Under the pieces are notes generated by a model. The model ran no database searches. It was given only the letters and a program-made list of their open reading frames with translations, and was not told the origin of the DNA. From the NCBI GenBank assembly GCA_964613015.1, contig CAZTFP010000002.1, positions 1,737-65,736 on the forward strand: a DNA stretch of 64,000 nt, read 5' to 3'. This DNA comes from an uncultured Candidatus Peribacteria bacterium. Lineage in GTDB: Bacteria; Patescibacteriota; Gracilibacteria; Absconditabacterales; Absconditicoccaceae. Both the position numbers and the translations under genes were made by a program. This document shows positions 4,057 to 56,361 of the stretch, one piece after another. Position 1 is the first letter of the stretch. Each line of letters opens with the position of its first letter.

Positions 4057-4091
4057 TCTCTAATAGTTTTTAATCTCTTTAGATCACTATC

Positions 4092-7064: not shown

Positions 7065-7139
7065 ATAATAACTACCCAATTATATATAACATAAACTACC
7101 AAGTAATAATCATTTATTTTATACCTTATTGTTACGGAA

Positions 7140-10100: not shown

Positions 10101-10934
10101 TGTAGTGTTGACTTTTCAGTTACTCAACCATACTTAGCACAGAAGAGTTCGTTTGGTCTTACACCAAAAGCTACCACCGTTCCTCTAGATGGATATAAGA
10201 TGATTAACGGTGATGATCTCATTGATAGTACAGATCTCAATACTATTATGGTGCTTAATGAAGCAACGTACAATTGAGGAAATACTATTACGACTATGAT
10301 GGATAGTTTCATAAACAAATATGCTAAACTTGCTATCAAACATGGAACACTTCTTTCTGATGATGGTAATACTATAACTACCTATAAAGTTCCTGGACAA
10401 GATATAGTAGTTTTAAAAGGTGTGGGAACAATTACCTATACGGAGCCAGCAAACACAACCCAACCATTTACGGTTATTGTTGATGGCCCAAGTATAAAAA
10501 TAAACTGATCTATAGAAAATACAAATGCTATGTTCTTAGTCAATAAATGAAATATAACATTTCTCCCATCAGTAGATGCATGTACAAAAACACAGGTCGA
10601 TAAATGAATTTTCGTCACTAGTCAATGATCATTTTTGGCTGGACCAGATCTTACCAATACCAATACGAATAAAGAATGGTGTATGTATGGATGATTAAAA
10701 ATACAATGAATACTCATCGGAAATGGTATACAAGACCTTGTACAATCTAGAAGATCACAACTTAATGGTTGGTTTTATGTATGATGATCATCTGATGCAG
10801 CAATCAAAGCAGAAAGAAGAAACGAAATATTTAATGGTGCTTCTGTATTAATTGAATATAGTCCAAGTTTATGGAGTGCATTACCTCCAGGAGCAAGTGA
10901 ATTTACTAAAGCATTGGATGTATATAAGCAATAA
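7140..10934 (+). CDS. giant secreted protein (1264 aa) with DUF11-like repeats and Cys-rich CGNG..E.CDDGN repeats
   Basis: ATG 7140, TAA 10932-10934. Frame 3 was walked codon by codon for 7500-10934 with no TAA/TAG. Signal-like N-terminus MIYSTTTKKALYVIAISLLCLVGFTMA. Motifs CGDGLITQNEQCD and YCGNGIREGYENCDDGNRNGTPGDSCTLGC resemble the Myxococcus-type cysteine-rich repeat (TIGR02232). Confidence 0.75.
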
Positions 10935-13357: not shown

Positions 13358-14776
13358 ATGGGAAATACTTCTCCTAGTATAGTTGAAAAACCGATTATTA
13401 AATCACTCTTTACCCTTGCTATACCTATCGTATTAGCAAATCTTTTACAAAGCGCCTACCAACTCATTGATGCTTTTCGAGTAGGAAGATTATGATGAGA
13501 TGCTGTTGCTTCTGTGTCTGTGAGTTTTCCTATTATGTTTTTGTTGATCTCTATGTGAACCTGATTTGCTGTGGCCTGATCAACCCTTATAGCTCAGTAT
13601 TTTTGAGCAAAGAAAAAGGCTATGGTGAATCATGTAGCCGCACAGACATTGTTGATGGTACTTATCGTCTCCATATTCTTATCCGTAATATGACTTATTT
13701 CCTCTCCATTTCTACTTCATCTAATGTGAGTTGAACCGACTATTTTCACGAATGCATTGGCATTTTTGAGGATATCTTTCTTCGGTATATTGTTCGTTTT
13801 CTGATATTCTATGTTCCAGTCAATTATGAGATGAATAGGAGAAGTAAAATTACCTATGTATATAGTATTGTGAACGGTATTGTTAAATGCTATTCTAGAT
13901 CCATTCTTTATTTATGGGTTCTGACCGATACCTTCCATGGGCGTTTCCTGAGCTGCTATGGCTACCTTATTTACTCAATGAATAGCAGCAATAATCTGAA
14001 TCATAATACTCTTTAAAGGTAAATATAATATCCATGTTCATTGGTCAGATTTTATCCCTGATTTCTGATATATCAAAAAGGCTTTTTTCTTGTGACTACC
14101 ATCGTCTTTGGAAATGTCTTCTCGTGGATTGGGGATGGTAATATTAACGTTTCTCATCACGAGTTTCGGCACTCAAGCAGTAGCTTCTTATGGTGCTGGG
14201 TCAAATATTTTGCAACTCATAATCATACCTGCATTGGGACTTTCTATGGCAATCTCTATTCTCGTAGGACAGAATATATGAGCAAAAAGAATGGATAGAG
14301 CTGCTAACACAGCAAAAATCTGATCATTGATTTCATTTTGATTGCTTACCGGGATCTGAATCCTTGTATTTTTCAGTGCCTCATTCCTCATAAGATTCTT
14401 TATTCCTCACGATCCGGCAATCGTAGCTTGATGAACGGAATTTCTTCGTACCGTTGCTTTGACGTTTTGATTTATGGGATTACAAATGGCTATCCTCTGA
14501 GTGTTCCGTGCATCTGGAAATATGACTACCGCATTTATGCTTTCCGTCATTTCTCAGTGGGTAATACAATTCCCACTAGCCTATGTATTATCAAAACATA
14601 CATCATTATGAATCCACTGATTGTGGTATACATTTCCCGTTACCAATATTCTTACTGCCATCATATGCTATCTTCGGTTTATGAAGTGAACATGGAAAAA
14701 ATCTATCATTACTAAAGAAGATAGAATAATTGAACATATTAGTGAAGAAACTTTCGTGGAAGAAGGAACCCGTTAA
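13358..14776 (+). CDS. MATE family efflux transporter
   Basis: ATG 13358, TAA 14774-14776, frame 2. LANLLQSAYQLIDAF(W)VGRLGGDAVASVSVSFPIMFLL is the typical MATE N-terminus. About 29 in-frame TGA codons by hand count. CGA at 13478-13480 falls on the usual AFWVG Trp. Confidence 0.85.
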
Positions 14777-15030: not shown

Positions 15031-15456
15031 ATGCCTACTATCAATCAACTTATCAAGACCTGAAGAAAACAAAAGACGTATAAATCTAAAGCGCCCGCTT
15101 TGCAGTTTGGTATCAATAAACTCGACAGCAACAAGAGAACCGATAGACCAGCTCCATTCAAAAGATGAGTATGTCTCAAAGTTTCTGTGATGGGTCCAAA
15201 AAAACCAAATTCAGCGCAAAGAAAATTTGCAAAAGTAAGACTATCTAATGGTGCTGAAATACTTGCCTATATCCCAGGAGAATCTCATACCCTTCAAGAA
15301 CACAGTGTAGTACTTGTAAGAGGATGAAGATGTAAAGATCTTCCAGGAGTAAGATATCATATCATCAGAGGAAAATACGACGCAAATCCTGTAGACAAAA
15401 GAAGACAATCTAGATCTCTTTACGGAGCAAAAAGACCAAAAGCAGCAAAAGCATAA
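15031..15456 (+). CDS. rpsL: 30S ribosomal protein S12
   Basis: [10 protein letters not shown](G)RKQK...VLVRG(G)[18 protein letters not shown] 15325-15327 lies at the conserved RGGR glycine. Confidence 0.97.
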
Positions 15457-15520
15457 TCTTAGTATCAAGCTTGGAGCTTAAAGCTTAAGGCTAATGTTTA
15501 TTTATCATTTAGTTTATACT

Positions 15521-15973
15521 ATGTCAAAATTAATTGCCGGTTCATTATCTAACCCAAAAATCGAAAAGATTATCAACTACATTATGAAAAATGGGAAAAA
15601 AAGTGTAGCTAAAAAAATCTATCACGATATGCTTCAAGAGATCAAATCCAATGGTCATATGAATCCAGAAATAGTCTTGGAAACTGCTATAGATAATGCT
15701 TCTCCTAGTTTGATGATCAAATCAAAAAGAATGTGAGGTTCTGTATATCAAGTTCCTGTAGAAGTTAAACAAGATAAAAAACTATTTTTTGCTTTCAAAC
15801 GAATTCTTGCTGGTACTGATTCAAAAACAGGTAAACCTATGTACAAAAAATTAGCTGAAGAAATCATGGCAGCATACGGTAATCAAGGATACGCAGTAAA
15901 GAAAAAAGAAGAAACACATAAAATGGCTGAAGCAAACAAAGCGTTTGCATACATGGCAAAATACGTTAATTAA
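15521..15973 (+). CDS. rpsG: 30S ribosomal protein S7
   Basis: ...SPSLMIKSKRM(G)GSVYQVPVEV...AVKKKEETHKMAEANKAFA. The ATG at 15521 is in frame with track ORF 15494. TAA 15971-15973. Confidence 0.93.
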
Positions 15974-15980
15974 TACACAA

Positions 15981-16020
15981 CGATTAAACGTTTCATCGAT
16001 TAAACGTTTAAACGATTTAT
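15981..16020. repeat. 16-nt-period direct repeat (cgattaaacgttt x2) with AAACGTTT palindromes, 3' of rpsG
   Basis: cgattaaacgttt at 15981-15993 and again at 15997-16009, followed by aaacgattt. Confidence 0.6.
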
Positions 16021-16039
16021 CTTCTATATTAATAATAAA

Positions 16040-16291
16040 ATGGGAAATACTAGTGGAGCAAAATATAAGCATATGATGTATAACGTTTCTCGAGCAAGCC
16101 AAAAATCTGGAAAAAAACTAGAAAAGGCAATTGCACGATATGTTGATCTTATGAAAAAAGAAGAAAAAGCAGGATCAGAAACGAAATGGATATACAAGAC
16201 GAGATTAAAAGCAAATGCTAGACTCAAAAGATATGGGGTAACTCAAGCGATGCTTGATGCTGCTCTAGCAAAAAAATGAGTTAGCAAATAG
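16040..16291 (+). CDS. small basic protein (83 aa), function unassigned
   Basis: Track ORF 16040-16279 continues through one TGA to TAG 16289-16291. Lys/Arg-rich and located in a ribosomal-protein neighbourhood. Confidence 0.4.
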
Positions 16292-16503
16292 ACCTGAACA
16301 CAACATTTTAATTATATTTGTTTAATAGCATGACTAGATTAAAAACCAACGCAAAAAGAAAGCTCAACAAAGCATTATTCAGAGTTGAAAAAGTTGTTAT
16401 CATGGACGTAAGAAGAAACCTTGAACAACAAAAAAAATGGAAAGCTAAGGTTATGAACAAAAAGGCTAAATAGTTTTTTTTAAATTATTGAATAGTATTT
16501 AAA

Positions 16504-16929
16504 ATGAATTTTGACAGACTCAAACATTTCTACGACAACAATGGAAGCAAAATCCTTGATATCAAACCAGGGATGTATATTGAAATCCATGAAAAAGATG
16601 TAGAAACAAATAGAATTTGGAGATTTAAATGTCTTGTTATCAAGACAAAAAAACCTAGTCATGCTGATGGATCATTTACCGTTAGAGGTATGGTCGCTGG
16701 TGTAGAGGTAGAAAAAATCTATCCTCTTTCATTCAACAAATTCGACAAAATTGTTCTTTTGGATGAATATCAAATCAGAAGAGCTAAACTTTACTATATC
16801 AGAGACAAAGTAGGTAAGGATGCTAGATTCAAATCCAAAATCACTGCTGAAAAGAGAGATATAAATATCCTCGATAAAGAAGCTGGTAAAGTAAAAGAAA
16901 ATAAAGGAAAGAAAAAAGGAAAAAAATAA
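16504..16929 (+). CDS. rplS: 50S ribosomal protein L19
   Basis: ...FTVRGMVAGVEVEKIYPLSFNKFDKIVLLDEYQIRRAKLYYIRDKVGK fits the L19 signature. Confidence 0.9.
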   Translation: MNFDRLKHFYDNNGSKILDIKPGMYIEIHEKDVETNRIWRFKCLVIKTKKPSHADGSFTVRGMVAGVEVEKIYPLSFNKFDKIVLLDEYQIRRAKLYYIRDKVGKDARFKSKITAEKRDINILDKEAGKVKENKGKKKGKK

Positions 16930-16962
16930 TCTCACTATTTTATTATCTTCGTTATTATTCTA

Positions 16963-18109: not shown

Positions 18110-18128
18110 AAAAGTCATTAGTAATAAA
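18104..18128 (+). repeat. 25-nt direct repeat, copy 1 (tRNA-Lys 3' end plus trailer)
   Basis: ctaccaaaaagtcattagtaataaa recurs at 18265-18289 with one mismatch. Confidence 0.8.
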
Positions 18129-18264
18129 ACACATAGAAAAATATCTAGTAATGGATGTTTTTTTTATTTTATTCTGATTTCACTTCTCTCTGGTCCTAGC
18201 AATGCATCCAGGGGGGTTTATACCGCAAGGCAGGAATCCTCTGCCACCTTTATCCTGTTAAGTG

Positions 18265-19817: not shown

Positions 19818-22268
19818 ATGAAACATTTAGTGATTGTTGAGTCTCCGGCTAAATCTGCGACTATCAAAAAATTTCTCGGTGAAGGATTTGAAGTAAAAGC
19901 CTCGTTTGGACACGTAATAGATCTCCCACAAAAAGAACTCGGTGTAGATGTCAAAAATAATTTTGCACCAAAATATATAGTATCTCCTGATAAAACTAAG
20001 GTGGTGAGTGAGCTAAAGGCGCTAGCTAAAAAGGCTGATAAAGTCTGGATCGCTACCGATGAAGACCGCGAAGGAGAAGCAATATGACGACATGTGGCTA
20101 ATGCACTAGGATTGGATGTTAAAAAAACTGCAAGAATAGTCTTCCATGAAATCACCAAAGAGGCGATTGATGCAGCAGTAAAAAATCCTAGAACGATAGA
20201 TATGAATCTCGTAGATGCACAACAAGCAAGAAGAATCTTAGATAGATTAGTATGATTTGAATTGTCACCTGTCCTCTGGAAAAAAATTAAAATGGGATTG
20301 AGTGCATGAAGAGTGCAATCCGTAGCTGTAAGATTGATCGTCGAAAGAGAAAGAGAAATCCAAAAATTTGAATCTGCATCATTTTTTAAAGTGATTTGAA
20401 GTTTTGTGGGTGATGCGAAAAAAGAATTTAAAGCTGAACTTTCCAAAGATTTGCCTACTGCCGACGAAGCAAAGAAATTCCTTGAATCATGCAAAGATGC
20501 CAAATATACGATAGAAAATGTGGAAGTAAAACCAGGGAAAAAGTCACCTTCTGCTCCCTTTACGACCTCTACCCTTCAACAAGAAGCGAGCAGAAAATTA
20601 GGATTTTCAGTCGCAAGGACAATGCAAGTTGCTCAGAAATTATATGAATGAGGATTTATCACGTACATGAGAACTGATTCCGTAAATATGTCAGATTTTG
20701 CGCTCAAAGCAGCTCAAGACGAGATAACCAAAAGATATGGAAAAGACTATACTAACCCAACACAGTATGTCACCAAAAGCAAATGATCACAAGAAGCACA
20801 TGAATGTATCAGACCAGCACATATGGAAAACAACATGGCAGGCAATGACGCTTCCGAAAAAAGATTGTATGAATTGATTTGGAAAAGAACTATTGCTTCA
20901 CAAATGGCACCAGCTGAAGTAGAAAAAACGAAAGCAACCATAAGTATATCAACGAATAATAAATTTAATTTCATCGCTAGTGGTGAAGTTGTGAAGTTTG
21001 ATGGATTTCTGAAAGTATATTTCGAATCTAAAGATGAGGAAGATGGAGAAGGAGCAAAGGACGAGGAAGAAGGCATGTTACCTAAGTTAACTAAGGGTGA
21101 AATATTGGCAATGCAACAGATTCTTGCTGGAGAAAGATTTAAAAATCACCCACCAAGATACACAGAAGCGTCGTTGGTTAAAAAGCTTGAAGAGCTTGGT
21201 ATCGGACGTCCATCTACCTATGCACCAACGATTTCAACCGTACAAAAAAGAGGATATGTTGTGAAAGAAGATAGAAACGGAACGGAAAGAAAGTATCAGG
21301 AAATGATTTTGAGACTCTGAGTCATCAAATCTGAAACGAAAAAACAAAATACCTGAGCAGAGAAACAAAAGCTCTTCCCTACAGATATCGGTATGGTGGT
21401 AAATGATTTTTTGGTCGCGAACTTCAAAGAGATTTTGGATTATAATTTTACGGCAAGCGTGGAAGAAGAATTCGATGAAGTCGCTGAAGGTAAAATCAAG
21501 TGGCCTGAAATGATGAAAAAATTTTACGGACCATTTCATAAAGAAGTAGCTAAGACGATAGAATTCGCAGAAAAGCAGACGGGAGAGAAAGCGCTCGGTA
21601 TAGATCCTAACACCGGTAAGACCGTCGTCGCAAGGATAGGAAGATTTGGTCCTATGGTACAAGTAGGGACCGCTCAAGATACGGATAAACCAAAATTTGC
21701 TTCGCTCAGACCCGGACAAAATATTGAATCGCTTACCCTGGAAGATGCCTTGGCATTGTTCGCATTACCGAGAATTATCTGACAATATGAGGGTGAATGA
21801 GTCACCGCAGCAGTAGGAAAATTTGGACCGTATTTGAAATATAAAACATTCTTCGTCTCTATCCCCAAGACCTTGGATCCCTACACTATCACGATGGAAG
21901 AAGGTATCCCGCTCATAGAGAAGAAAATCGACACAGAAAAAAACAAGTATATCAATAATTTCGATTATGATGGCAAAAAAATAGAAGTATTGAATGGACT
22001 CTATGGTGCATACATAAAATTTGATGGAAATAATTATAAAATCGCCAAAGGGGGGAAAGATGCTAGCGACTTGAGCAAGGATGAATGTATAGCGATTATT
22101 GCCAGCGGTCCTAAGCCTAAATTCTGAGCTAAAACAGTAACAAAGAAAGAAACGAAAAAGCTAACTAAAGAAGCTCCTTCAACCAAAAAAATAGCAGTAA
22201 AGAAAACCCCAACGAAAAAGTCCATAGTCAAAAAATCCCCAACGAAAACTAAACCATCAAAGAAATAA
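19818..22268 (+). CDS. topA: DNA topoisomerase I
   Basis: [21 protein letters not shown]..., TOPRIM motif [11 protein letters not shown](G)(W)[14 protein letters not shown], Lys-rich tail. Track ORFs 19668, 20406, 20823, 21393 and 21834 all lie in frame 3. TAA 22266-22268. Confidence 0.95.
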
Positions 22269-26340: not shown

Positions 26341-26895
26341 TTAATTTTTTTTGTAGATTCTATATTCTACTCAATGGATTTCACTATTGGGATCTGTGGT
26401 CTTATGATCTACAATTATTTCATTCCCATCGGTATCTTTTTGTACTATTCATCATATTGATTCGGCTATTTTTCTGCTAGGAATATTATCCTTATCTACA
26501 GGATAAAACAAATATTCAAAATCCAGATGTTTCTGAGCTCGATTAGTTAATCCGACAATAGCTTCCCTTCCTATCTTCTTTCCGAATGCTGATTTCTTTA
26601 TTCGGATACCAAGTTCTGGTGTTTGGGGAGTAGCTGAATGAAGTCATGCACAACCCAGAAACTCTCTGGTTTTTTTGTCCAAAATCACTGCTTGATAATT
26701 TGTTCAAGCTTCCATTGTCTGTATTGCATTCTGTATAAACTGTTGTGTTTCTGAAATATCCTTTCATGGTTTGGGTGACATATACGTAGTGATCTCCCGA
26801 GTAAATTCATTAAATATCTCCTCTGCATAGTGCATGGTAATAGGGACTAAGAGCAAACGCTCTGTCTCTATAATGACGCTTTCTATATGTTCCAT
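26341..26895 (-). CDS. GNAT family N-acetyltransferase (RimJ/RimL-like)
   Basis: TERLLLVPIT..., ELGI(W)IKKSAFGKKIGREA with CGA 26602-26604 at the usual Trp. 555 nt from ATG to TAA. The overlapping track ORF 26543-26767 is in the wrong frame. Confidence 0.8.
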
Positions 26896-27011: not shown

Positions 27012-28808
27012 TTATTCGTTCTCTGTAATGAAGCCTCCAGACTGGATATTTCGGAGCTTTTTATATACACCATTTTCCTTGGCAAGTAATTCTTTATGAC
27101 TTCATTTTTCAATGATTGCTCACTTGTCCATAACGATTATTCTATCCATCTTCATAATAGTTGAAAGTCTATGTGCGATCACGATAGTAGTTTTGTTGTT
27201 CATAACCTCATCCATCGCTTCCTGGATTAATTGTTCTGATTCTGAATCAAGTGATGACGTTGCTTCGTCGAGCACGAGAATTCTTTTGTTCTCGAGAATC
27301 GCTCTTGCAATAGCCACTCTCTGTCTTTCTCCTCCAGACAATTTTATTCCTCTTTCTCCTACAAGCGTATCATACCCATAACGTAATTTAGAAATAAATT
27401 CGTGACATCTTGCCATCTTAGCAGCAGCGATAATTTCTTCTTCGCTTGCATCAGGATTTCCATACGCGATATTTTCCTTGATAGACCTATGGAAGAGCAC
27501 CGTATCTTGAGGCACCATAGAGACATTTCCTCTCAAACTATCCTGGGTCACTTGTGAGATATCTTGACCATCGACTAAAATATTTCATCACTGAATATCA
27601 TAAAATCTGAATAATAATTTGACTAGGGTTGTTTTCCCTGATCCTGATTGCCCTACTATGGCTACCTTTTCTCCTGGTTTGATGCTCAAATCAAGACTAT
27701 TGAATATTGCTTTACCATCACCATAAGCGAAAGTAATATGTGCAAATTCTACTTTACCTGCAGCCACATGTAATGTTTTGTCAGAATGATCGATAATCTC
27801 ATGCGGTTCATCTAATATTTCCAACATCTCTGCTGATTCACCGATAGCTCTATTCATCTGTTTGAGAATATTTCTGATATTGAAGAGTTGGTCAAACAAT
27901 TTGAAGATATATATTTGAATCAAAATGATTACTCCTGCAGAGATAGTTCAGGCACCTCGTGCTTGTATTGCAAGATAGATGGTTCCTATTTCAAACAAGA
28001 AGATAAGAAATGAACTTCAGAAAAACATCCATTCGGCTCTCAATCGTTTTACTTTGGTGAGATGTTCTCGTTCTCTAATTACCCCACCGAATCTTTGGAT
28101 TTCTCTTGGTACTGAAGCAAACGTTAAAATATTAAAATTATTGGTAATCGTATCAGCAAGTTCTCCTGTGGTTTTGGAATCCTGTATATTTGATTTTACT
28201 TCATAGGGAGTATTCCACTTGAAGAAAAGATATTGAAGGAAGCCAAAGATGAGCATAAATACTAAGAATACAACACCTATTCTTGTATCTTGTCTTCGTA
28301 CTACAACAAGAATGAACGGCAAGAATATAATCATTCTTAAAATATTGAAAAGAAAGTTATCCATAATATTTTCAAATGATCATGCCAATTTATTTATTTT
28401 CTTTACGAGTGCACCAGAAAAATTATTGGTGAAAAAGCTGAATGAGTGTCTGTGGATATAAGCAAAACATTGTTCATAGATTCTTCTCATGACTCTGGGT
28501 TCTAGATTTATAGAACTAAATCCTACTATTCTCCATCAGCTGACAGAGAAAATTTCTATAATACCCATAGCGACCAATATTCACATCAGTTTAGGAACCA
28601 ACGATATTCTACTTACTGTATCCACTTGTACAATATCTATGATCTTTGTATAATAAATCGGTAGCAGCAAATTTGTTAATGAGGTAATAATCATACCCAA
28701 AGATGCCCCAATAAATGCCCGTTTTCTGGTCATTGTCATTTTTCGAAAGTAGGAAATTACTCTTCGTGTCCCTACTGTGGTTGTTTTCTTCTTCTCGTCG
28801 TTTCACAT
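27012..28808 (-). CDS. ABC exporter, fused permease/ATPase (MsbA/BmrCD-like)
   Basis: Track ORFs 28017-28364, 27588-27923 and 27120-27551 share one frame. GQSGSGKTT, LSGGERQRVAIARA, ILVLDEATS. C-terminus GVYKKL(W)NIQ. ATG at 28808. Confidence 0.9.
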
Positions 28809-29262: not shown

Positions 29263-30778
29263 ATTTTCCTGTCATTTCTTTGGGGATTGTAATACCCATA
29301 ATTTTCAAAATAGTTGGTGCTATGTCAGAAAGTCATCATGATTTTTTTAGTGTCTGTACTTTTCCTTTGCTGATATATCGACATGGAACGGGATTCATAC
29401 TATGTGCTGTCATCGGTGCTTCCGGTGTGCCCATTTCATCACTATTTCCATGATCAGCAGTAATGATAAGTTCGTAATTATTTTTGTTGCAGAAAGCAAG
29501 AAGGTCTCAGGTAATAGTATCAAGTTTCTTGATCGCAGTAATGACCTTATCCATTTTGCCGGTATGCCCTACCATATCTCCGTTGGCGAAATTCACTACG
29601 ATGAAATCAAAGTCTTTGGCTTGTGCAACAAACTGATCATAAATCTCTTGCGCAGACATCTCTGGGTCTAAATCATAGGTTGCTACCTTATGGGAAGGGA
29701 CGAGAACATCTTTTTCTCCATCAAATACTATTTGTCTATCACCATTGAAAAATTTTGTGACGTGAGCAAATTTTTCTGTCTCAGCGAGATGGAGTTGACG
29801 AAGTTCATGATGAGAAATTACTTCAGGTAGAGTATTTTTGATATCTTGTTCTTTGATAAATGTTGGTCATTCATATTCTTTGTAATATTTCGTCATAGCT
29901 ACAAAGTAGATATTGCTGAGTCTTTTGATCAAGAAATGTCTAGGTCGCGTAGGATATTCTGCCGCTATTTTTTTGTCCATAGAAACCATAATCGCCTGAG
30001 TCAACTGTCTTGCTCTATCAGATCTGAAATTGAGATGGAAAATAGCATCATCACTTTCTATCTGGTCTCACCGGGTAAAACTTACAGGAAGAATAAATTC
30101 GTCGGTGATACCTTGTTCGTATTGTTTGGCAATATATGCACTTGGAGTATCGCTGGTCTGTAATTGACCAAAGACAATTTCATCATAAGACTTCTGGATT
30201 CTTTCTCGATTATTATCTCTATCCATACCAAAATATCTTCACGCTAAGCTTGAAATTTTGACATTGGGAAATTTGGTGAGAGAATTTTCGAAATCTATCA
30301 TGAGCTCTAGCATACTATTTGGCGCAAGATCTCTTCCGTCTCCGAATAAATGGAGCGATACGTTTATGTCTTTGGGAATAATTTTGAGTATTTTTTTCAA
30401 GTGTGAATCCATCGCATGGACGCCACCAGGTCAAAAAAGCTGGATCAAATGTAAGGTAGAATCGTTGTCTTTGCAATGCGCTATTCCTGCTTTGAATTCT
30501 GGTAATTTTGCAAAACTACCATCATCCAACATATCATCTATTTCCACCAAATTTTGTTTAATAATCCTTCATGAACCGATCGTCATATGTCCGACTTCAG
30601 AATTCCCCATTTGACCGATAGGTAATCCTACAGCTTTTTCACAAGCGTTTAGGGTAGCATATGATTGAGCAAATAATTTTTTGAATACAGGAGAATGTGC
30701 TTGGATGATTCCATTATGTTTGGGTGTCGTTGTGTTTATTCAAAATCCGTCGAGGATAATCAGCGCGAGTTTTTTCAT
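29246..30778 (-). CDS. gpmI: 2,3-bisphosphoglycerate-independent phosphoglycerate mutase
   Basis: [14 protein letters not shown]..., [21 protein letters not shown](W)[23 protein letters not shown]. 1533 nt from ATG to TAA. CGA 30206-30208 is in frame. Confidence 0.93.
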
Positions 30779-31356: not shown

Positions 31357-32901
31357 TTATTCACTTTCTACAAACATCGTTTTGCTTCTATACTGCAATG
31401 CTTCCGCTAAATGGGTAATAGTAACAAATTCTTGTCCTTGGATGTCAGCAATTGTTCTAGCTAATTTGATAGTACGATGGACAACTCTGGTGGATAAGAT
31501 TAATTTTCTCGCTGCTTCAGCAAGAAAATTTTTACAATCGTCCGTCAAAGGAATCAGTTCATCGATATGTTTTGAAGTGATTTGGGAATTTGCTGTGATG
31601 GAAAGTCAGAAGAATCTTTGTTGTTGAATTTTCCGTGCATTGATGACCTTATCTCTTATACTTGCTGAATGTTCTTCGGTGATATTGTTGAGAATTTTGT
31701 CGATATCCTCACGAGGAATTTCGAGAATCATATCTATTCTATCGAGTAATGGACCAGATATTTTGCTTTGATAACGCTTAATATCTAGTAATGAACAGGA
31801 ACATGGCTTTGCACTATCTTTGTAATATCCACATTTACATGGATTCATCGCACCGACAAACATAAAATTAGCTGGATACTGAATCGTGCCTGCGACGCGG
31901 GAAATCACGACAGATTTATCTTCTAATGGTTGACGCAACACTTCTAATACTTCACGGGGAAACTCGGTGACTTCATCAAAAAACAAAATTCATTTGTGGG
32001 CTAAACTCACTTCGCCAGGCGTGAGTTGAGATCACCCGCCGACAATAGAAATCTTGGATGCCGTATGGTGGACCTGACGAAATGGCCTCTTGGTAATCAG
32101 CGGAATATCTTTACTCAATTTGCCTACGAGTGAATACACTTGACTGACCTCGAGAATTTCTTCAAACCCTAGTGGAGGCAATATACTCGACATGGCTTTG
32201 CTCAATAAGGTTTTCCCGCTTCCTGGCGCGCCAACCATGAGGACATTGTGCATACCTGCAGCTGCGATTGCTAATGCTCTCTTGGCAATGAGTTGTCCTT
32301 TGATATGTGCGAAATCAACCTCAAAACTACTACTTTGCTGATACAACTCTTCAATATTTTTGGCTTGATCGATACAATACAATTCTTTTCCTTGTAAAAA
32401 ATATTCTATCATCTGATCAAATTTTCCGATTGGATATATGCATATTCCTGGTACATATTCTAATTCATAGACATTTTCTTCCGGCACGAAAAAATGTTTG
32501 TAGCCATGATGCATAGCACTTATTACTGATGGCAGAAGTCAATTTACACGCTTCACAGTTCCATCCAATCACAGTTCGCCGAAGTAAAGAAATTCAGTAT
32601 CTGGTAGTTGTATTTTGTCTTCAAAAACAAGAAACAATATCGCAACAGCCATCGGCAAATCGAAACTCGTTCACACTTTTTTGATATCTGAAGGAGAAAG
32701 ATTGAGTACAATTTTTCTGTTGGGTAATTGGATGCCCGCATTGCGAAATGTTGCTCTCAAGCGTTCTTTGGATTCTTTGATCGCGGCATCCGGTAATCAG
32801 ACAATCTCTATCGTCGGCAATGATTTACTCGAATCTGCTTCGACAATAATTTCATGTCATTCTAGTCAAACATTGGCGTATGTTTTTACTTTCTGGATCA
32901 T
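31357..32901 (-). CDS. comM: YifB/ComM family Mg-chelatase-like AAA+ ATPase
   Basis: Track ORFs 32032-32514, 31606-31986 and 31357-31548 share one frame. The start extends to ATG 32901. GAPGSGKT, ILFFDEVTEF, LDRIDM. Confidence 0.92.
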
Positions 32902-38938: not shown

Positions 38939-39667
38939 TTAAATATCTTTTTTCATTGCTTGTACTTTTAAATTTTTTGGCATTTTTTCTATTGAATATC
39001 TCAAAGCCGTCCTGGGCATGATTGCTTTATGTTTCATAACATAGGCAAAGACTTCTTGCGGATGTGCTTGGCTGGTGACCTTGAGTAATCGACCATATCC
39101 TTTCTGTACTATATCATCCTCATCTATAAGTAAACTATCTGCGATCTGAAATATATCGGCTAAAAATTTTCCTTTTTTTGCGGGAATGATAAGACTCACT
39201 GCTGCAGCTCTTTTGACTCGTCTATTGGATGACTTCGTCCGCTGTTTCAGCTGAACAATAATGTTTGGATACTGCTCTATAAATTCACCCACGGTGTGAT
39301 TACAAAACGTATCGCACTTGGCTCGATTGTTGATATATTTTTCTATTCGTCCTGTGAATATGATAAAGTCTTCTGGTGTGAATTGTTTTTTAAGTTGGTA
39401 TGTCCAGTTGGATGCGATGAATGATTCCTCACAATAATCGGATTTGAATAATTGGTCGCAGAGTCAGAAGATAGTTTTTTTATCTAAATCCTTGATCTGT
39501 TTCCATTGCTCTTTGGCAAGTGTTTGGACGGTAGCGCTGGGAATACCATATACCTTCACGGGCTCCTTGAAAAAATGCATGGCACTTTCCTGGACTTTAG
39601 AATTGCTGAGTTGGGTAAGTTGATTGCGAAGATTTCTAAGAAATGTTTTGGGAGTAAACATGATCAT
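38939..39667 (-). CDS. DNA alkylation repair protein (AlkD-like HEAT repeat)
   Basis: Track ORFs 39464-39667 and 38939-39292 share one frame. KGYG(W)LLK with CGA 39089-39091. NN(W)AKCDTFC. Confidence 0.85.
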
Positions 39668-42571: not shown

Positions 42572-43546
42572 ATGAAAAAGCTCTTCCGAATTCCTATTAT
42601 CATTATCTTATTTTTGGGTGGTGGTTTTCTTTATGTAGTGAAAAATCCTACATTACCAATTGCTCAAAAAATCCTGACAACATTATGAATATCAACGACA
42701 ATATCTAAACAGTGAACAAAAATAGACATAACAAATTGTGCAAGTTACTTTGATGGGTGTAATACGTGTATGGTCTCTGGATGAGTTATCGGTGGATGTA
42801 CGAGAATGTATTGCGAACAAACAACTCAGCCGAAATGTTTGGAATATGTAGCTACTGGAACAGCTGCATCATGAGCAATAGATTTAACGAATTGTGTAAG
42901 TTATTTTGATGGGTGTAATAATTGCAGTGTCAAAGATGGAAAACCTGATGCATGTACCTTGATGTACTGCGAAACTCCAGGGACACCGAAATGTAATCAA
43001 TATAAAACTGGAACTATAGAACAAAGCACGGGGAATGGAAATCAATGAACAAATACCAGTGTTGGTATAGCAAATCCTGCATCTACTAATTGTATAAACA
43101 ACTGATGAACACTAAATATTGTTACCTCATCAGATGGTGGACAAGTGGGCATGTGTACTTTGAAAAATTGAACCCTATGTGAAGAACGAGCATTTATGAG
43201 AGGTGAATGTTGAAATAAAAATACTGGAGCTGGAACGAGTCCAGGTAATCCATGATCAAGTCCAGACAACCAACCGATAGCATGTTCAATGATCGCTAAA
43301 TTATGTCCAGATGGAAGTTCTGTCAGTAGATCATGACCCAACTGTGAATTCGCTCCATGTCCATGAGAATGAACCGTATGTACACAAGAATATGCACCCG
43401 TCTGTGCTAGCGTTATAGTAGATGTAGAATGCATCAAGGCTCCATGTCCTTCTCAAAAAATGGAACAAACATTTGGAAACAAATGTATGATGAACGCAAA
43501 TAAATCAGCGACATTTTTACATAACGGCGAATGCGCTGCTAAATAA
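42572..43546 (+). CDS. secreted Cys-rich protein: two NC.SYFDGCN.C repeats plus DUF333 plus Kazal-like domain
   Basis: Frame 2 was walked for 42602-43546. ANPASTNCINN(G)(G)TL...CEE(W)AFMRGEC is the DUF333 signature. CTQEYAPVCAS...FGNKCMMNANKSATFLHNGEC is Kazal-like. Confidence 0.8.
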
Positions 43547-43674: not shown

Positions 43675-44841
43675 ATGAAAAAATTTCTTCGAATTTCATG
43701 AACCATTATTGTCCTCGCTTGAGCATTTTTGGTAATTCTAAAGACAACAACTCGATTTACTCCAGCACAACCAGCAACAACTTTAGCAAATCCAGCGTCC
43801 GTTTATTGTCAACAGCAAAGTGGAACACTAGAAATTGTTACAGACACAAGTGGCGCACAATCGTGAATATGTCATTTAAGTGGTTGAGTGGATTGTGAAG
43901 AACGAGCATATATGAGAGGTGAATGTCCTAGTACAGGTACTATTGTTGTATCGACAGGCAACCAGTGACAATATCTCTTGGTATTTATGCAAAAAGACAC
44001 TGAAAATGGTCTTACGATATATGGAGATGTCTATGATAAAGATAATCTTAGTAATCCTATTCGTTCCTTCAATTTACCCGATTCAGATACGCTTATTCAG
44101 AATAAGTTTGATAATCACATGATAGGATATTTCAATTCGAAATGAGAGTATTATCTTCTTACAGATGCTCCTGGTGGATATATACAACATCTTTATAAGA
44201 TACCAGTAAGCTGAACGATAGAACAAATATCAGTCACATGACCAGATTCGATATCTGGCTCTGAAATATGAATAGGATCACCAGCTTTTATAGATCAGGA
44301 AAATCTCAAGATAGCATATGTTGTAGATAATTCATATACCACTGGAGAAAACGATAATGTAATATCACAGAAACTAGCAATATATGATATACCAACAAAA
44401 AAAGCCACCATTACCTCCTATGATACACAAAATATAAAAAGAAAAGTAACAGCAACCAAGCAACCTCTTCTTTATCCTGATTATGATATACAGCGATTTG
44501 ATAATTTTAAAGGTTGAATAGTTGAGTTTGATGTAGATCATGATGGTGTCGATACTCAGACTTCGGATTATTTCACTACCTGTTTTGATACTAATAAAAG
44601 TATTGAATTGTCCTATGAAGCTTGTATCCAATTATTTCCTAAAAATAGAATATCTGCCATAAGTAATGACAAAGAAATTTATGATGATACTCCATCAAAT
44701 ATTCTCATAGATGGAAAAGATGTTTGAGTATTTACATGAATAATTTTTACTGATATTGTGTGAGATTCTGTATTGTGATATACTGATTCGGGATATAAAT
44801 TTTATAAATTAGATGATGTTCTGAATCATAATATCAAATAA
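43675..44841 (+). CDS. DUF333 domain-containing secreted protein (388 aa)
   Basis: Frame 1 was walked for 43681-44841. ANPASVYCQQQSGTLEIV...CEE(W)AYMRGEC. CGA 43903-43905. Confidence 0.75.
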
Positions 44842-46489: not shown

Positions 46490-47896
46490 ATGAACAATTT
46501 CCATTTCTCAAAAATCATTGCCGGTGTGGGACCGACATTAGCAAAAGAAACTGTACTTTCCAAAGTCATCAATATGGTGGATATTTTTAGAATTTCCTTA
46601 TCGGGTGGATTCGATGATAACAATAAAAAATATATCGATACCATTATGAAATTGGATAATAGTAAAACTATCATGATGGAAACCAGAGGATCAGATATCA
46701 GAGTAAAAAATGTTTTGGATATAAAGGTCAAAGTCAGACAAACGATAGAGATTGAATATAGTGAATATGCTCAGGAACATGATAAAAGAATATTTGTCGA
46801 TGCATCATTTCTTAGAGAATTGAAAGTTGGACAAGTTATTAAGTTTCAGCAAAGTGGTGTCGTGATAAAAATCAAATCTAATAAAGAACATGCAACCATG
46901 TGTGAGGTGATTGAATGAGGGTGGATTATCCAGTTTGATAGAGTGTTCTTTCATAATTATGATCTCAATCTTCCCTTTCTTGGAGAAAGAGATAAACACG
47001 ATATTTTACGATGATTGGAATATGGTATCCATGTCATGGCTCCTTCATTGGTCAAAACGAGAGACGATATCATAGAACTCAAAGATTTTTTGAAAACCAA
47101 AAATGCAGGGAATATGAAAATTCTTGCAAAAATAGAAACGGAAGAAGCATTGGAAAACATAGATGACTTGCTAGATATTTCAGATGGATTGATTTTTGTC
47201 TTTGAAAAGATTGAAAAAGCCATGAAAGCTTTGAAGCTCAATGAAGAAATTTTGGTAAATAAATGTAAAGTACTGGGTAAACCAGCTATTGTGACCTTTG
47301 TTGGTAAGTTTGAAAAAAACAAATATCAGTTGATCAATGAAACTCAATTGAAAAAATTTTCAAATATGGCAGCAGATGCATATATGCTTGATACCCTACT
47401 TCAGGAAGATGATCCTCTTGCTATGATTACTCAACTTTCTGATACTTTGGATTCACTAGAATTGAAAATTACGCCACAAGAATTGACTTGTTTCTATGCA
47501 AACAATGAATTTATGGTAAGAGATTATATTCTCTACAATGCCCATAGGACTACTCAAGAAGTTGACGTAAGAGCATTGGTATTGTATACAGAAAATGGAT
47601 ATTCAGCAGGAAGATTATCTAGTCTAAAACCAAGAGTACCTATCATAGCCTTTACCAAAAGCGATGAAAATTATAGATATCTCAATATGCTTCGAGGAGT
47701 TAGAGGATATAAAATTTCTCAGTCATTCAGTTATGAAAACTTGAAAAGGATTGGAAAAGAAATGATAAGAATTATCTTTAAAGGTAATATTTCTCTTGAT
47801 GATAAGATTATTATCGTCCAAGCAAATGAAGTAATTGGAGATGAGAAAACAGGTATGATCAATGGTCTGGAATTATATAAATTTAAGAATATTTAA
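46490..47896 (+). CDS. pyk: pyruvate kinase (divergent)
   Basis: Track ORFs 46481-46918 and 47015-47896 share one frame. KIIAGVGP..., MMETRG, ERDKHDIL(W)GLEYGIHVMAPSLV, ILAKIET. Confidence 0.82.
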
Positions 47897-48271: not shown

Positions 48272-50482
48272 ATGGCTATCTATAAAGTAAGAAAAAGAAA
48301 TGGTGCAATTATTGATTTTGATATCAATAAGATAGAATCGGCAATTAAAAAAGCCATAGAAGCAGTTGGAGGAACAGATTTTAGTGAAGTAGTTAGTCTC
48401 GCAAAAAAAATAAGTAAAGAAGTAGAAAAAAAGGTAGGAAAAGAAATCCCAAATATAGAAGCTATTCAGGATACCGTTGAACAAATTCTCGTAAAAGAGG
48501 GACATGATACCGTTGCTAAAGCATATATTTTGTATCGCCAAAAAAGATTGGAATCGAGAGCACAAGAAAGTGTCGTCGTTGAAGTAGGAAAAACTATGGA
48601 TGAATACCTCGATCAAAGTGATTGGAGAGTAAATGCAAACAGTAACCAATGATATTCACTCGGAGGACTTATTCTCAACATTTCAGGGAAAGTTATTGCC
48701 AATTACTGGTTGAGTCACGTCTACCCTGCAGATATCTGAGCTGCACACAGAACTGGAGACTTTCATATCCATGATCTGGATATGTTTTCTGGATATTGTG
48801 CAGGACGAAGTCTCAGACAATTACTTGAAGAAGGGTTTAATGGATTGACCAATAGAGTACAATCAGCTCCCCCAAAAAACCTTCAAGCTGCGGTAAATCA
48901 AATGATTAATTTTTTCTGAACACTTCAAAACGAATGGGCTTGAGCACAAGCATTTTCTTCTTTTGATACCTATCTCGCTCCATTTATACATAAATATAAA
49001 GTAGAACAAGAACAAGAGATTGATGCTATAGGGATGAAATTTACAAGTCCTGAAGCCAAAAAAGAATTTATAGACAAGAAAACATATAAATACGTCACTC
49101 AGCAGATGCAAAATTTTATCTTTGGATTAAATGTCCCTTCACGCTGGGGAACACAAACGCCATTCACCAATATCACCTTAGATTGGACTTGTCCTGAAGA
49201 TTTGAAGGATAAATCACTTATGCTTTGAGGGATAGAAAAATGATATTATCCAAAGAAATTCAGTGAACTCGAAGAAGAGATGAAACTTATCAATAGAGTC
49301 CTTATCGAAGTATATACCGCTGGAGATTGGACAGGATCAGTATTTACTTTCCCTATCCCGACATACAATGTTACCGAAGATTTTCCACGGGATGATCCAG
49401 ACATCAATTTACTATTTGAAATGACTGCTAAATATGGAATTCCTTATTTTCAAAACTTTGTAGGATCACAATTTAAAGTCATCAAAGATAAGGAGGGAAA
49501 TATAACAAAAGTAGACAATCCTGATGCATATAAACCAGGAGCTGTGAGATCAATGTGTTGTAGATTACAGCTTGACCTTACCCAGCTTGAAAAAAGATGA
49601 TGATGACTTTTCTGATCAGCTGAAATGACGGGTTCTATCTGAGTCGTTACCATCAATATGGCAAGAATCGGATATAACTTTAAGGGAGATAAAGAAGGTT
49701 TTAAAAATCAGGTTCGTTATCTTATGAACTTGGCAAAAATATCGCTTGAACTCAAAAGAAAAGAGATTACAAAATGGTTAGATGCATGATTATATCCATA
49801 TACAAAAAGATACCTTCATTCCTTCAGAAATCACTTCTCTACTATCGGACTCAATGGTATGAATGAAGCCATCCTCAACTTTACGAATGGTAAGGAAGAC
49901 ATCTCTACTGATGCTGGCAAGAAATTTGCTATGGAAATCATGGACTTTATGAGAGAGATATTGAAACAATATCAAGAAGAGACAGAAAACCTCTACAATC
50001 TAGAAGCAACACCAGCAGAAGGAACAACCTACAGATTTGCCAAAGAAGATAGAAAACAGATTCCCGAAATCATACAAGCAGGTACCCATGATGCACCATA
50101 TTATACCAATTCTACTCAGCTTCCTGTTGGTTATACCGATGATCCGTTTGAGGCACTAGAACAACAAAACGAATTACAATGTAAATATACTTGATGAACG
50201 GTTCTTCATCTCTATATGGGAGAAAGAGTATCCAATGCACAAGCATGCAAAAATTTAGTTAGAAAGGTTATATCAAATTATCAACTTCCGTATATCACTA
50301 TATCACCCGTCTTTTCTATCTGTCCGAAACATGGATACGTTATAGGAGAACATGATTATTGTCCAAAATGTGATAAAGAACTTGGATATGCAGGAGATGA
50401 GTTTAATATAGATATTAGACAAAAGCACACTTCAGACCCAGAAAAACTTAGAATCATCAAAGAAAAGAAAATACAAAATTAG
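48272..50482 (+). CDS. nrdD: anaerobic ribonucleoside-triphosphate reductase, large fragment lacking the glycyl-radical domain
   Basis: ATP-cone N-terminus. GYCAG(W)SL. CCRLQLDL..R(G)(G)(G)LF(G)S..GSIGVVTINM. KYT(G)(G)TVLHLY. CPKHGY...CPKC. Track ORFs 48272, 49034, 49280, 49859 and 50216 share frame 2. Ends at TAG 50480-50482. Confidence 0.92.
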
Positions 50483-50777: not shown

Positions 50778-51224
50778 ATGACAGAAAATACTAACGTAGG
50801 AGTTGGGTTTGGAGTGATGATTCTCAGAAATGGAAAAATACTTCTCGGTCAAAGACATGTGGATCCAGCCAAAGCCGATTCTGAACTTCATGGTGAATGA
50901 ACACGAACAATGCCTGGTGGCAAGATGCGTTTTCATGAAAGCTTTGAAGAGACCTGTCATCGTGAAACATTAGAAGAGACAGGATTAGAAATCAATACAT
51001 CTACTATAAAGATCATCAGTATAACCAATGATATGGTATCAGACAAACATTTTGTAACTATAGGATTCTTGTCAGAAGATGTAAAAGGTGAACCACAAGT
51101 TTTAGAACCAGATGAAATCACTCAATGGCAACGATTTGATTTGAATGAGCTTCCTACACCACTCTTCTTCCCTAGCGAAAAAGTAATCAAGAATTATTTT
51201 GCAGGAAGTATTTATAATTACTAA
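50778..51224 (+). CDS. NUDIX hydrolase
   Basis: GE(G)T(W)TMPGGKMRFHESFEETCHRETLEETGL is the Nudix box. CGA 50904-50906. Confidence 0.88.
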
Positions 51225-52423: not shown

Positions 52424-53134
52424 GTGAAGATTGCGTGAATACAACAGTCAACTATGATCGACTATCCAGGCAAAATCGCCTGTGTGGTTTTTACACAATG
52501 ATGCAATTTCCGCTGTCACTTCTGTCATAATCCTGAATGTGTTTTACCCGAAAAGATGATGTTGTTTCAAAATGATTTGATTCCTGAAGAGGTGTTTTTT
52601 AATTTTTTGAAAGCGAGAAAATGATTACTTGATGGAGTAAGTATCTGTGGTGGAGAACCAACTATACGACCTGACTTATATGACTTTGCCAAGAAGATAA
52701 AGGAGATGTGATTTCTAGTCAAGTTGGATACCAACGGAAGAGATTATCAAATCGTCAAAAGAATGATCCAGGATAAAATTTTGGATTATGTAGCAGTTGA
52801 CTTAAAACACTCTATGCATAGCTATGCTGATGCGGTCGGATTGGAACAACCCGCAGAGTTTTATCTCAGCTATCAGAAACTCTTGCAGATATTATTGGAA
52901 AGTAAAATAGATTATGAGTATAGAACTACCGTTGCAAAGGGCCTTCATACCGCTGACGATATTGAAAACATGGCCGTCTATATCAGAGGAGCTAAACATT
53001 ATTATCTTCAGAATTATATCGGCGGAAATACCCTCGATCCAGATTTTGGTGGAACTCCCTTTAGTGATGAAGAACTCGAAGCATTTAAAAAAATAGCTGA
53101 ACCGTATGTCCAGCATTGTGAGATAAGAAAATAG
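52424..53134 (+). CDS. nrdG: anaerobic ribonucleotide reductase activating protein (radical SAM)
   Basis: GTG start. IDYPGKIACVVFTQ(G)CNFRCHFCHNP is the CxxxCxxC cluster. In frame with track ORF 52724-53134. Confidence 0.88.
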
Positions 53135-54130: not shown

Positions 54131-54694
54131 TTAAATTATAAGTTCAGCCCAATCACCTGGTTTCATCAATGCTGCATTGGCTTCTTCGATATCAATATGA
54201 AAATCGAGCGCGTAATCGTCTCTTGCTCTGACCGCAACATTTTCAAACATAATTCCTCTGATTCATCCGACGTGGAGTTGAATGATATCACCATTTTTTA
54301 TTCCCATTTCTTGTGCTTCTTGGACTGTGCAATGTAAATGTCTTTGTGCCACCATAGCGAATGTACCGTAAATATCTCCGACCGGTCAGATTATTTTTAT
54401 GTACTCTAAATTGTCTACATCACCAGAAACTTTGATTGGTGCGTTTGTTCATAATACAAAATTATCACCAACCATGATCTCTACTTGCGTAGTTTTTCTT
54501 GTCGGTCCTACTACTCTCACTTTTTCTATCTTGCCTTTGGGTCACTCGATAGTCACTAATTCTTGGGCAGCATATTGTCCAGGCTGAGAAATGTCTTTGA
54601 ATACTTTGAGTTCATATCATTTACCAAAAACCTTCTCCATATCACTAGGAGAAAGATGCACATGTCTATTGGAAATTCATACGGGGATTCTCAT
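54131..54694 (-). CDS. pduL: phosphate propanoyl/acetyl-transferase, PduL family
   Basis: ISNRHVHLSPSD...VVGPTRKTTQVEI...AQRHLHC...DFHIDIEEANAA. 564 nt from ATG to TAA. Confidence 0.88.
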
Positions 54695-54780
54695 GTTTTT
54701 GAATGTAGAATGTAAAATATATAATTCAGAATTAAATGTTTTAAATATTTCAAATTTTTCTGCATTCTGAATTCTAAATT

Positions 54781-55473: not shown

Positions 55474-56361
55474 ATGCGAGAACAGATACAAAAATATTGT
55501 GCAGATAAAAAAACCGTCTGAGGGATTGTTATTGTCATTGTATTTATTCTTATTATTATCTTCCAAGTAAGCGGAGAAAAAAGATGAATGAATACTTCAC
55601 TCCACGGTAGTATAGATTTTGCTGGTGAAGTGATGCCAACTGAATGAAAATATCAGTTAAATATTGAAAGGTTTGATAGAGAGGTTGCTTTATTAGAAAT
55701 CAATGAAGCGCAATTTATCATGATCTATAAAAGATGGAATTTAATTATACCAATCATCGAAAAAGAACTTAAAAATGCTGATCTCCCTGATGATTTAAAA
55801 TATATCCCAGTTATCGAAAGTGCATTGAGGGATAATGTTGTTAGCTCTGCTGGTGCCGCTGGATTGCGGCAATTGATGCCATGAACTGCCCAAAGATATG
55901 GATTGATGGTAAATAGCGGTATAGATGAAAGATATGATGTAGTCAAGTCTACAGCGGCGGCTATCAATTATCTTAAGACACTTGGTAGTTTATTCCCTCA
56001 GCGGACTCTTGTGGCCGCCGCTTATAATAGGGGCGAAAATGGCTTACAAAATAGTTTGGAAAGTCAGTATAGTAATAATTATTATGATCTCTGGTTAAAT
56101 ACGGAAACCTCAAGATATGTATTTAGATTGCTTGCTATGAAATATGTCCGAGAACATAAATATATGTTTTTTGCTCGTAACACTTTGTGAGACATGTATC
56201 GCCCGTTTAACACAAAATTTGTAAGTGAAAAAAATATCCCTGACATCGCTGATCGAGCAAGAAAAAATAACTTGAGTTACTATGAGGTAAAAAAACTTAA
56301 TCCATGGATTATCGATAATACGCTCCCTGATGGAAAGTGGAATATAGAAGTATTTAAATAA
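55474..56361 (+). CDS. lytic transglycosylase (SLT domain, MltD-like)
   Basis: ESALRDNVVSSAGAAGL(W)QLMP(G)TAQRYG. (W)TLVAAAYNRGENG. In frame with track ORF 55903-56190. CGG codons at 55867-69 and 56002-04. Confidence 0.85.

Follow-up and report, generated by a model that had tools for sequence, protein, structure and literature searches.

The window analysed here (the whole of the 64,000-nucleotide stretch from contig CAZTFP010000002.1, assembly GCA_964613015.1) carries a topA gene in which a TGA codon is followed directly by a CGA codon, in the context GAT GAA GAC CGC GAA GGA GAA GCA ATA TGA CGA CAT. The two codons fall in the TOPRIM motif of TopA, and the CGA is opposite the W of DREGEAIsWH or DREGEAIaWH in three of three solved structures (PDB 6ozw, 6pcm, and 1cy0). 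Conserved arginines of the same gene are encoded by CGC (20067-20069) and CGT (21207-21209), as had been pointed out in a sequence-only reading of the window, a model's note made from the letters and a list of their open reading frames. That reading proposed that CGA and CGG have been reassigned from arginine (Arg) to tryptophan (Trp) on top of a reassignment of UGA to glycine (Gly), and it listed 13 sites in well-known families; all 13 carry CGA or CGG at the position and on the strand it gave. We concluded that the window is very probably read with the code of the Absconditabacterales (SR1), in which UGA stands for Gly and CGA and CGG stand for Trp beside UGG. CGA and CGG are assigned to Trp because four independent comparative lines agree with one another and with the proposal: the codons found in relatives, the columns of homologues outside the clade, the Pfam scores, and the split between ingroup and outgroup.

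The gene set used for codon counts was curated from a mechanical list of open reading frames (ORFs) with TGA read through. Antisense ORFs were dropped, and the Nudix gene, two minus-strand genes at 54131-55338, and two genes at the window ends were put back, giving 47 genes with 18,629 codons. GC content is 33-37% across the 64 kb, which is low, as in the Absconditabacterales code. Long ORFs add up to 140% of the window length with TGA as a sense codon vs 43% with TGA as a stop (overlaps counted). TGA occurs 419 times among the 18,629 codons, amounting to ∼29% of Gly codons, and in codon-level alignments to relatives it is opposite GGN in 51% and opposite TGA in 41% of cases. These figures indicate that UGA is a sense codon for Gly in the window. 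The 47 genes contain 100 CGA, 16 CGG, and 101 TGG codons, next to 367 AGA, 38 AGG, 58 CGT, and 33 CGC; TGG is still used for Trp, as the sequence-only reading had noted. Counted over all genes in the window, CGA and CGG reach 53.7 and 8.6 per 10,000 codons, respectively, and together they would make up 53% of the Trp codons. Trp content would be low (0.55%) with TGG alone vs 1.18% once CGA and CGG are added. NrdD is 80-94% identical to its counterparts in genomes labelled Candidatus Absconditabacterales, candidate division SR1, or Absconditicoccaceae, gene order is kept, and the nearest loci include the complete genome RAAC1_SR1_1 (CP006913.1). By NrdD identity and gene order, the window appears to lie inside the Absconditabacterales.

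For the comparison with relatives, an NrdD scan with one genome per species yielded 80 loci (NrdD identity 62-94%) with titles reading Candidatus Absconditabacterales, candidate division SR1, Absconditicoccaceae, or Gracilibacteria. ORFs were called in these loci with TGA as a sense codon and, with X in place of the reassigned codons, matched to the window genes; the alignments were then read back as codons. Opposite window CGA (574 pairs) the relatives have CGA in 47%, TGG in 30%, and CGG in 12% (89% within these three codons), and glutamine (Gln) or histidine (His) codons in 9%, all of which come from one site. Opposite window CGG (153 pairs) they have TGG in 56%, CGA in 24%, and CGG in 19%, and opposite window TGG (896 pairs) TGG in 65%, CGA in 16%, and CGG in 8%. 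The partners of window AGA (3442 pairs) are AGA, AGG, AAA, and CGT. Aligned relatives are available at 57 window CGA/CGG sites (727 codon pairs), and at none of these is the codon opposite AGA, AGG, CGT, or CGC; TGG occurs in at least one relative at 45 of them, and at 47 the relatives have only CGA, CGG, or TGG. As far as codon exchange can show it, CGA, CGG, and TGG form one synonymous family at Trp positions, apart from AGA, AGG, CGT, and CGC. A further codon reassignment was sought in the relatives' alignments and none was found, the other 61 codons pairing mainly with their standard synonyms.

The same alignments separate two groups of loci. In ∼40 ingroup loci (NrdD at least ∼79% identical, plus several more distant ones), CGA and CGG are opposite the window's Trp family and never opposite an Arg codon. 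In 14 outgroup loci of Gracilibacteria type (L021-L038, L061, L065), CGA and CGG are never opposite the window's Trp family; at the positions where the outgroup has CGA or CGG the window has mostly Arg or lysine (Lys) codons (AGA 120, CGC 9, AAA/AAG 39) and never CGA or CGG. The outgroup loci, in which CGA is used as Arg, have TGG opposite window CGA and CGG, both NrdD sites included (Table 1). From this split, the reassignment seems to be confined to one clade.

Homologues from outside the clade gave the same result. The AlkD alignment has 242 columns, only six of which are dominated by W at the 70% level, and all five CGA/CGG codons of the window gene fall on W-dominated columns. W is present at the five sites in 90-106 of 120 sequences; the remainder is R and is confined to the closest relatives, because same-clade members have been mistranslated by public gene callers. 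The true Arg columns of AlkD (R in 114-120 of 120) are encoded in the window by AGA, AGG, or CGC. In the S7 column 127 of 152 homologues have W, and the lone R belongs to a same-clade relative. The GpmI alignment came from a joined multi-protein query for which all 120 matches listed were GpmI fusion proteins, so that GpmI alone could be used; its motif column has W in 84, Y in 25, and F in 12 (n = 121, among the matches listed), and the columns of the other three GpmI sites are variable and in no case rich in Arg. CGA is found on conserved Trp columns in TopA, S7, four AlkD sites, GpmI, and NrdD, and CGG on such columns at AlkD codon 143, NrdD codon 373, and two SLT sites; the ComM CGG is TGG in a relative. 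The excess of CGA and CGG on Trp columns is far beyond chance. Over three deep alignments, the W columns are encoded in the window by CGA (five), CGG (one), and TGG (one), and the 17 R columns by AGA (10), AGG (two), CGC (one), and non-Arg codons (four), with no CGA or CGG among them. Arg is encoded by AGA, AGG, CGU, and CGC only.

A small, Codetta-like substitution test was performed with Pfam, in which 14 domain segments were joined and 18 further CGA/CGG sites were set to W, R, F, or L. The scores, as sums over 12 families without overlap, were 1227.9 bits for W, 1185.3 for F, 1180.6 for R, and 1178.4 for L. Trp is ahead of Arg by 47 bits over the 18 sites, and W is the best residue in eight families. 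W exceeds R by 12.8 bits in NUDIX (two sites together), by 9.1 bits in DUF333 (two sites together; ∼14 bits over F or L), by 7.2 bits in SLT (two sites together; also ahead of F and L), and by 6.4 bits in GNAT (three sites in the domain). MatE gave 209.1 bits for W, 208.2 for F, 207.1 for L, and 205.2 for R. In PK, W and F are about equal and R is ∼4 bits lower. The Pfam matches also bore out the family labels that the sequence-only reading had assigned (MatE, Acetyltransf_3, DNA_alkylation, DUF333 twice, PK/PK_C, NUDIX, and SLT). The sites are collected in Table 1.

Table 1. Codon sites and genes of the window discussed in the text, with the evidence at each.
Feature	Position	Strand	Evidence
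TGA (read as Gly) and CGA (read as Trp) in the TopA TOPRIM motif DREGEAI-G-W-H	20085..20090	+	sequence read
topA gene, likely start 19818	19818..22268	+	PDB match, E 4e-132
Ribosomal protein S7, CGA, FAFK-x-ILAG	15800..15802	+	near-invariant Trp of bacterial S7; absent from the list of the sequence-only reading
GpmI, CGA, MDRDNN-x-ERI	30206..30208	-	homologue column; TGG in one related locus
AlkD (DNA_alkylation), five codons read as reassigned	39089..39349	-	homologue columns
AlkD, CGA sites	39347-49, 39323-25, 39218-20, 39089-91	-	W columns
AlkD, CGG site (codon 143)	39239-41	-	W in 90/120
NrdD, CGA, GYCAG-x-SL	48806..48808	+	relatives TGG 60, CGA 16, CGG 3; outgroup TGG 14/14
NrdD, CGG, codon 373	49388..49390	+	relatives TGG 55, CGA 17, CGG 8; outgroup TGG 14/14
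Nudix, CGA, GEGT-x-TMPGG	50904..50906	+	relatives CGA 4, TGG 3, CGG 2; F or Y in solved homologues
SLT, CGG, GL-x-QLMP	55867..55869	+	relatives TGG 7, CGG 1, CGA 1
SLT, CGG, x-TLVAAAYN	56002..56004	+	relatives CGA 4, CGG 3, TGG 1, CCG 1
First DUF333 protein, CGA, CEE-x-AFMRGEC	43187..43189	+	relatives CGA 9, CGG 1, CCG 1, CCT 1
Second DUF333 protein, CGA, CEE-x-AYMRGEC	43903..43905	+	relatives CGA 11, CGG 1
GNAT (Acetyltransf_3), CGA, ELGI-x-I	26602..26604	-	Pfam scoring; search of solved structures without match
MATE transporter, CGA, IDAF-x-VGRLG	13478..13480	+	sole aligned relative has TGG
Pyruvate kinase, CGA, DIL-x-G	47009..47011	+	relatives CGA 8, TGG 5, CGG 3; E. coli PykF has F
ABC exporter C-terminus, CGA, YKKL-x-NIQ	27051..27053	-	I or L in solved ABCB homologues; no aligned relative
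ComM C-terminal domain, CGG, VINA-x-KIQQQRF	31633..31635	-	relative L204 (84% identical) has TGG; PDB 8rxd has H
NrdG, CGA, codon 95	52667..52669	+	lineage-specific, Gln to Trp as read here

Not every listed site is as conserved as the sequence-only reading had it. Its description of the positions as (near-)invariant Trp was too strong for pyruvate kinase (F in homologues), Nudix (F or Y), the ABC exporter (I or L), and GpmI, where Y and F share the column with W. In pyruvate kinase, Nudix, and GpmI the relatives swap CGA or CGG with TGG, and Trp therefore remains the best fit at these sites. The ABC exporter column points to a hydrophobic rather than a basic residue, and among the listed sites the case for Trp is weakest here. 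The assignment of CGA and CGG to Trp does not depend on the pyruvate kinase, Nudix, and ABC exporter sites. For DUF333, a search of solved structures was without match. NrdG codon 95 is a case of a different kind. RAAC1-like SR1 genomes and the outgroups have CAA/CAG (Gln) or CAT/CAC (His) at this codon, and the window's subclade has CGA, CGG, TGG, or TAT. By its codon distribution this is a real change from Gln to Trp within the subclade. A single transition from CAA to CGA, with silent drift afterwards, would produce it. The replacement would have been opened up by the new code.

Some points weigh against reading CGA and CGG as Trp. The support is comparative throughout, and a tRNA(UCG) or tRNA(CCG) of the organism or of its close relatives was not found in the loci and neighbourhoods searched. 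In the Pfam test, R scores higher than W by 1.7 bits in Mg_chelatase_C (the ComM site) and by 0.6 bits in Radical_SAM (NrdG codon 95); relatives carry TGG at both sites. Dual decoding at a low level would be compatible with the DNA data. An ambiguity in which CGA and CGG stand for Trp in some cases and for Arg in others, as an intermediate stage of reassignment, can be excluded only by experiments according to Shulgina and Eddy (2021), whose table contains one Absconditabacterales genome with CGG inferred as Arg and several with no call (PMC8629427). However, no conserved Arg position examined in our alignments has retained CGA or CGG, and substantial insertion of Arg would be costly with 53% of the Trp codons affected, those for essential invariant Trp included. 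Ambiguous decoding is unlikely on these grounds. The possibility that both codons still mean Arg would require that the lineage swapped many Trp for Arg, or that Arg and Trp columns coincide by chance. No support was found for it, the R in public translations being an annotation convention only. Arg would need to have replaced the invariant Trp of TopA and S7 and of five columns in AlkD; moreover, in relatives TGG takes the place of the codons at 45 of 57 sites and the other Arg codons at none, conserved Arg columns are without CGA and CGG, and the Pfam scores are 47 bits against R. This possibility is effectively refuted, and we consider it extremely improbable.

Two further explanations would leave the meaning of the codons unchanged or remove the signal. 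Plant organelles edit C to U in their transcripts, and CGG was at one time taken in error to encode Trp there. The DNA of plant mitochondria has CGG where Trp is conserved, as does the window; the cause there is post-transcriptional editing without a change of code, and the CGA case is left unexplained by it. CGG and TGG differ by a single C/T, and DNA alone leaves the conversion of CGG into UGG in the mRNA possible. The main codon in the window is CGA, however (100 vs 16 CGG), and editing would convert it to UGA, which is read as Gly and not as Trp. Bacteria are not known to edit C to U in their mRNA in this way, and in the published genomes of the order there are genes for tRNAs of Trp-type identity whose anticodons are UCG and CCG. 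Editing is thus highly improbable as the cause. An artefact of assembly chimerism, contamination, or mis-framed ORFs could be suspected from the foreign-looking codon usage of one gene (11186-13198) and from several spurious antisense ORFs in the first mechanical gene set. The signal nevertheless extends across ∼40 genes and the whole window, and it remains after the spurious ORFs are removed as well as in the genes with verified homologues only. An artefact is excluded because the signal recurs in dozens of independent assemblies, and its probability is negligible.

The reading of CGA and CGG as Trp is in line with the tRNAs described for the order. Absconditabacterales tRNA(UCG) and tRNA(CCG) have been classed as Trp acceptors, with G73 and without A20 (Shulgina and Eddy, 2021; PMC8629427). 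Among 10 Absconditabacterales genomes, all with CGA as Trp, tRNA(ACG) is present in none, tRNA(GCG) in nine, tRNA(UCG) in nine, and tRNA(CCG) in eight (PMC8629427). Following this literature, CGA and CGG would be read by tRNA(UCG) and tRNA(CCG), and CGU and CGC by tRNA-Arg(GCG). The first two lack the Arg identity element A20 and have the Trp discriminator G73, so that tryptophanyl-tRNA synthetase (TrpRS) would charge them. Bacteria of this radiation are without tRNA-Arg(ACG, read as ICG), and therefore no Arg tRNA would compete for CGA. CGA and CGG would shift together because tRNA(UCG) reads both. The geometry of the codons suggests a path from TGG through CGG to CGA in two successive transitions, each silent under the new code; TGA, the fourth corner of the square formed with TGG, CGG, and CGA, is Gly. 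At ∼34% GC with AT-biased mutation, CGG would drain both to TGG and to CGA, which fits the counts, CGA being about as frequent as TGG and CGG far rarer.

The 64-kb window itself contains tRNA-Lys(UUU) as its only tRNA. No ingroup tRNA(UCG) or tRNA(CCG) is present in the 80 related loci. A scan of metagenome contigs with a pattern of anticodon arm and T-loop (GGTCTYCGRAACCN{10,11}GTTCRA) returned ordinary tRNA-Arg(UCG/CCG) from many phyla and no Trp-type SR1 tRNA. The AlkD neighbourhoods of three same-clade relatives contained no tRNAs, and the recJ neighbourhoods of relatives contained one tRNA(GCG) only. One Ga-type metagenome contig of 1945 nt (L194), with TGA as a sense codon, carries tRNA-Arg(GCG) and tRNA(UCG) in tandem beside recJ (1319-1491). 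This tRNA(UCG) was ruled out as a Trp-type decoder by A20 and A73, which are of Arg type, and by the CGA codons of the genes on the contig, which fit Arg; L194 therefore belongs to the outgroup. It has one CGG at an aromatic position of RecJ and appears to resemble the Gracilibacteria state, with CGA as Arg and CGG as Trp. In the outgroup locus L065, a tRNA(UCA) at 18111-18189 on the minus strand was labelled as selenocysteine (SeC) by ARAGORN. Its G1-C72, C2-G71, G3-C70, and U73 are, by sequence, the Gly identity set expected for a tRNA reading UGA as Gly.

The code described here is a rediscovery, as the sequence-only reading had suspected, because the same code was already published for the Absconditabacterales in 2021. 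The reading had pointed to a report by Shulgina and Eddy of CGA and CGG as Trp in an Absconditabacterales clade, and this was right (Shulgina and Eddy, 2021, eLife; PMC8629427). By that paper's own statement, incorporation of Trp at CGA and CGG was not shown experimentally (PMC8629427). The reassignment was restated in a 2026 paper in Nucleic Acids Research. The clade is the same in both studies, as the genomes with NrdD 80-94% identical to that of the window include RAAC1_SR1_1 and UBA5124, both of which are in their table. The two codons, their new meaning, UGA as Gly, low GC, and AGA as the main Arg codon also agree. There is no qualitative difference; CGA and CGG are more frequent in the window, although the two kinds of count do not allow a strict comparison. 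For most genomes of their table, CGA stays under 37 per 10,000 (counted in Pfam-aligned regions), and CGA plus CGG make up ∼17-42% of Trp codons, vs 53.7 (all genes) and 53% in the window. The most advanced genome in the table, GCA_002791215.1, has a share of ∼61%, on a measure that is again not strictly comparable. Within the range of ∼17-61% that we calculated from the table, the window's share is near the top.

Other known codes share part of this pattern. NCBI table 25 (SR1 and Gracilibacteria) likewise has UGA as Gly; it differs in keeping CGA and CGG as Arg. Anaerococcus and the RFN20/Onthovivens Bacilli also have an Arg CGN codon reassigned to Trp at low GC, with a tRNA(CCG) of Trp identity, but they are unrelated Firmicutes without UGA recoding, and CGG alone is affected. 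CGA is still Arg in these bacteria because tRNA-Arg(ICG) reads it. The Gracilibacteria (BD1-5) are a sister lineage with UGA as Gly, and in some members CGG appears to be read as Trp; unlike in the window, CGA is Arg or nearly absent. Six Gracilibacteria-type loci in our set (L058, L064, L073, L074, L076, and L079) each have CGG once, and CGA never, at a position where the window has a Trp codon, in agreement with the published remark that CGG is Trp in part of the Gracilibacteria.

The share of CGA plus CGG among Trp codons is 40-71% in most close relatives. In two of these relatives, L056 (CAYSER010000003.1) and L008 (CAZLLU010000025.1), CGA and CGG account for 83-89% of the codons opposite window Trp codons, and the reassigned codons are ahead of UGG, in small samples in both cases; in L056 (46% GC), CGG is the commonest codon opposite window Trp. 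These high shares do not alter the verdict that the code is already known. Tentatively, and with considerable doubt, it may be proposed that the subclade (NrdD at least ∼80% identical, shared gene order) is at a late stage of reassignment, with UGG perhaps being vacated and misreading by tRNA-Gly(UCA) as a possible driver. Selection would then act to take Trp out of the split box of UGA (Gly) and UGG (Trp), where tRNA-Gly(UCA) could misread UGG. If this is true, the 'rebound' phase of codon capture would be open to study in this order as a natural series of graded stages.

Sense-codon reassignments are very rare in bacteria, and CGA and CGG to Trp are among the five from the 2021 screen (PMC8629427). 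Their consequences for annotation are direct. Table 11 shatters the window genes. The sequence-only reading had warned that table 25 alone mistranslates them, and the count agrees: table 25 puts Arg at 116 positions read here as Trp (all CGA and CGG codons, ∼0.6% of residues), among them tryptophans of catalytic cores. Public proteins of the clade (P0121-P0142 for AlkD, P0362 for S7) have R at invariant Trp columns because they were translated with CGA and CGG kept as Arg. Such mistranslations are passed on to alignments, to structure predictions, and to proteomics searches, where W and R differ by ∼30 Da in mass and false tryptic cleavage sites are predicted.

Some other features of the window may be mentioned. 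The gene with foreign-looking codon usage (11186-13198, plus strand) encodes 670 amino acids with PKD_6 and Por_Secre_tail domains, the latter a sorting signal of type IX secretion. TGA is used for none of its 65 Gly codons (P ∼2e-10 given the 29% share of TGA elsewhere), CGA and CGG for none of its six Trp codons, and its GC content is 0.44 vs ∼0.34 in the neighbours. These features suggest that it was imported recently from a donor, perhaps Bacteroidota-like, that uses the standard code. The gene is found with the same neighbours on six ENA contigs and is therefore not an assembly chimera. At 15031-16962 the genes for S12 and S7 are not followed by fusA or tuf, and the stretch at 15974-16962 (30% GC) gave no convincing ORF and no Rfam match. 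The ends of the window (1-10934 and 62715-64000) contain several very large predicted surface proteins, two of which match the CLIPPER family. The first of these large proteins extends past the left end, and a TGA-rich repeat protein, with TGA as 35 of its 76 Gly codons, extends past the right end.

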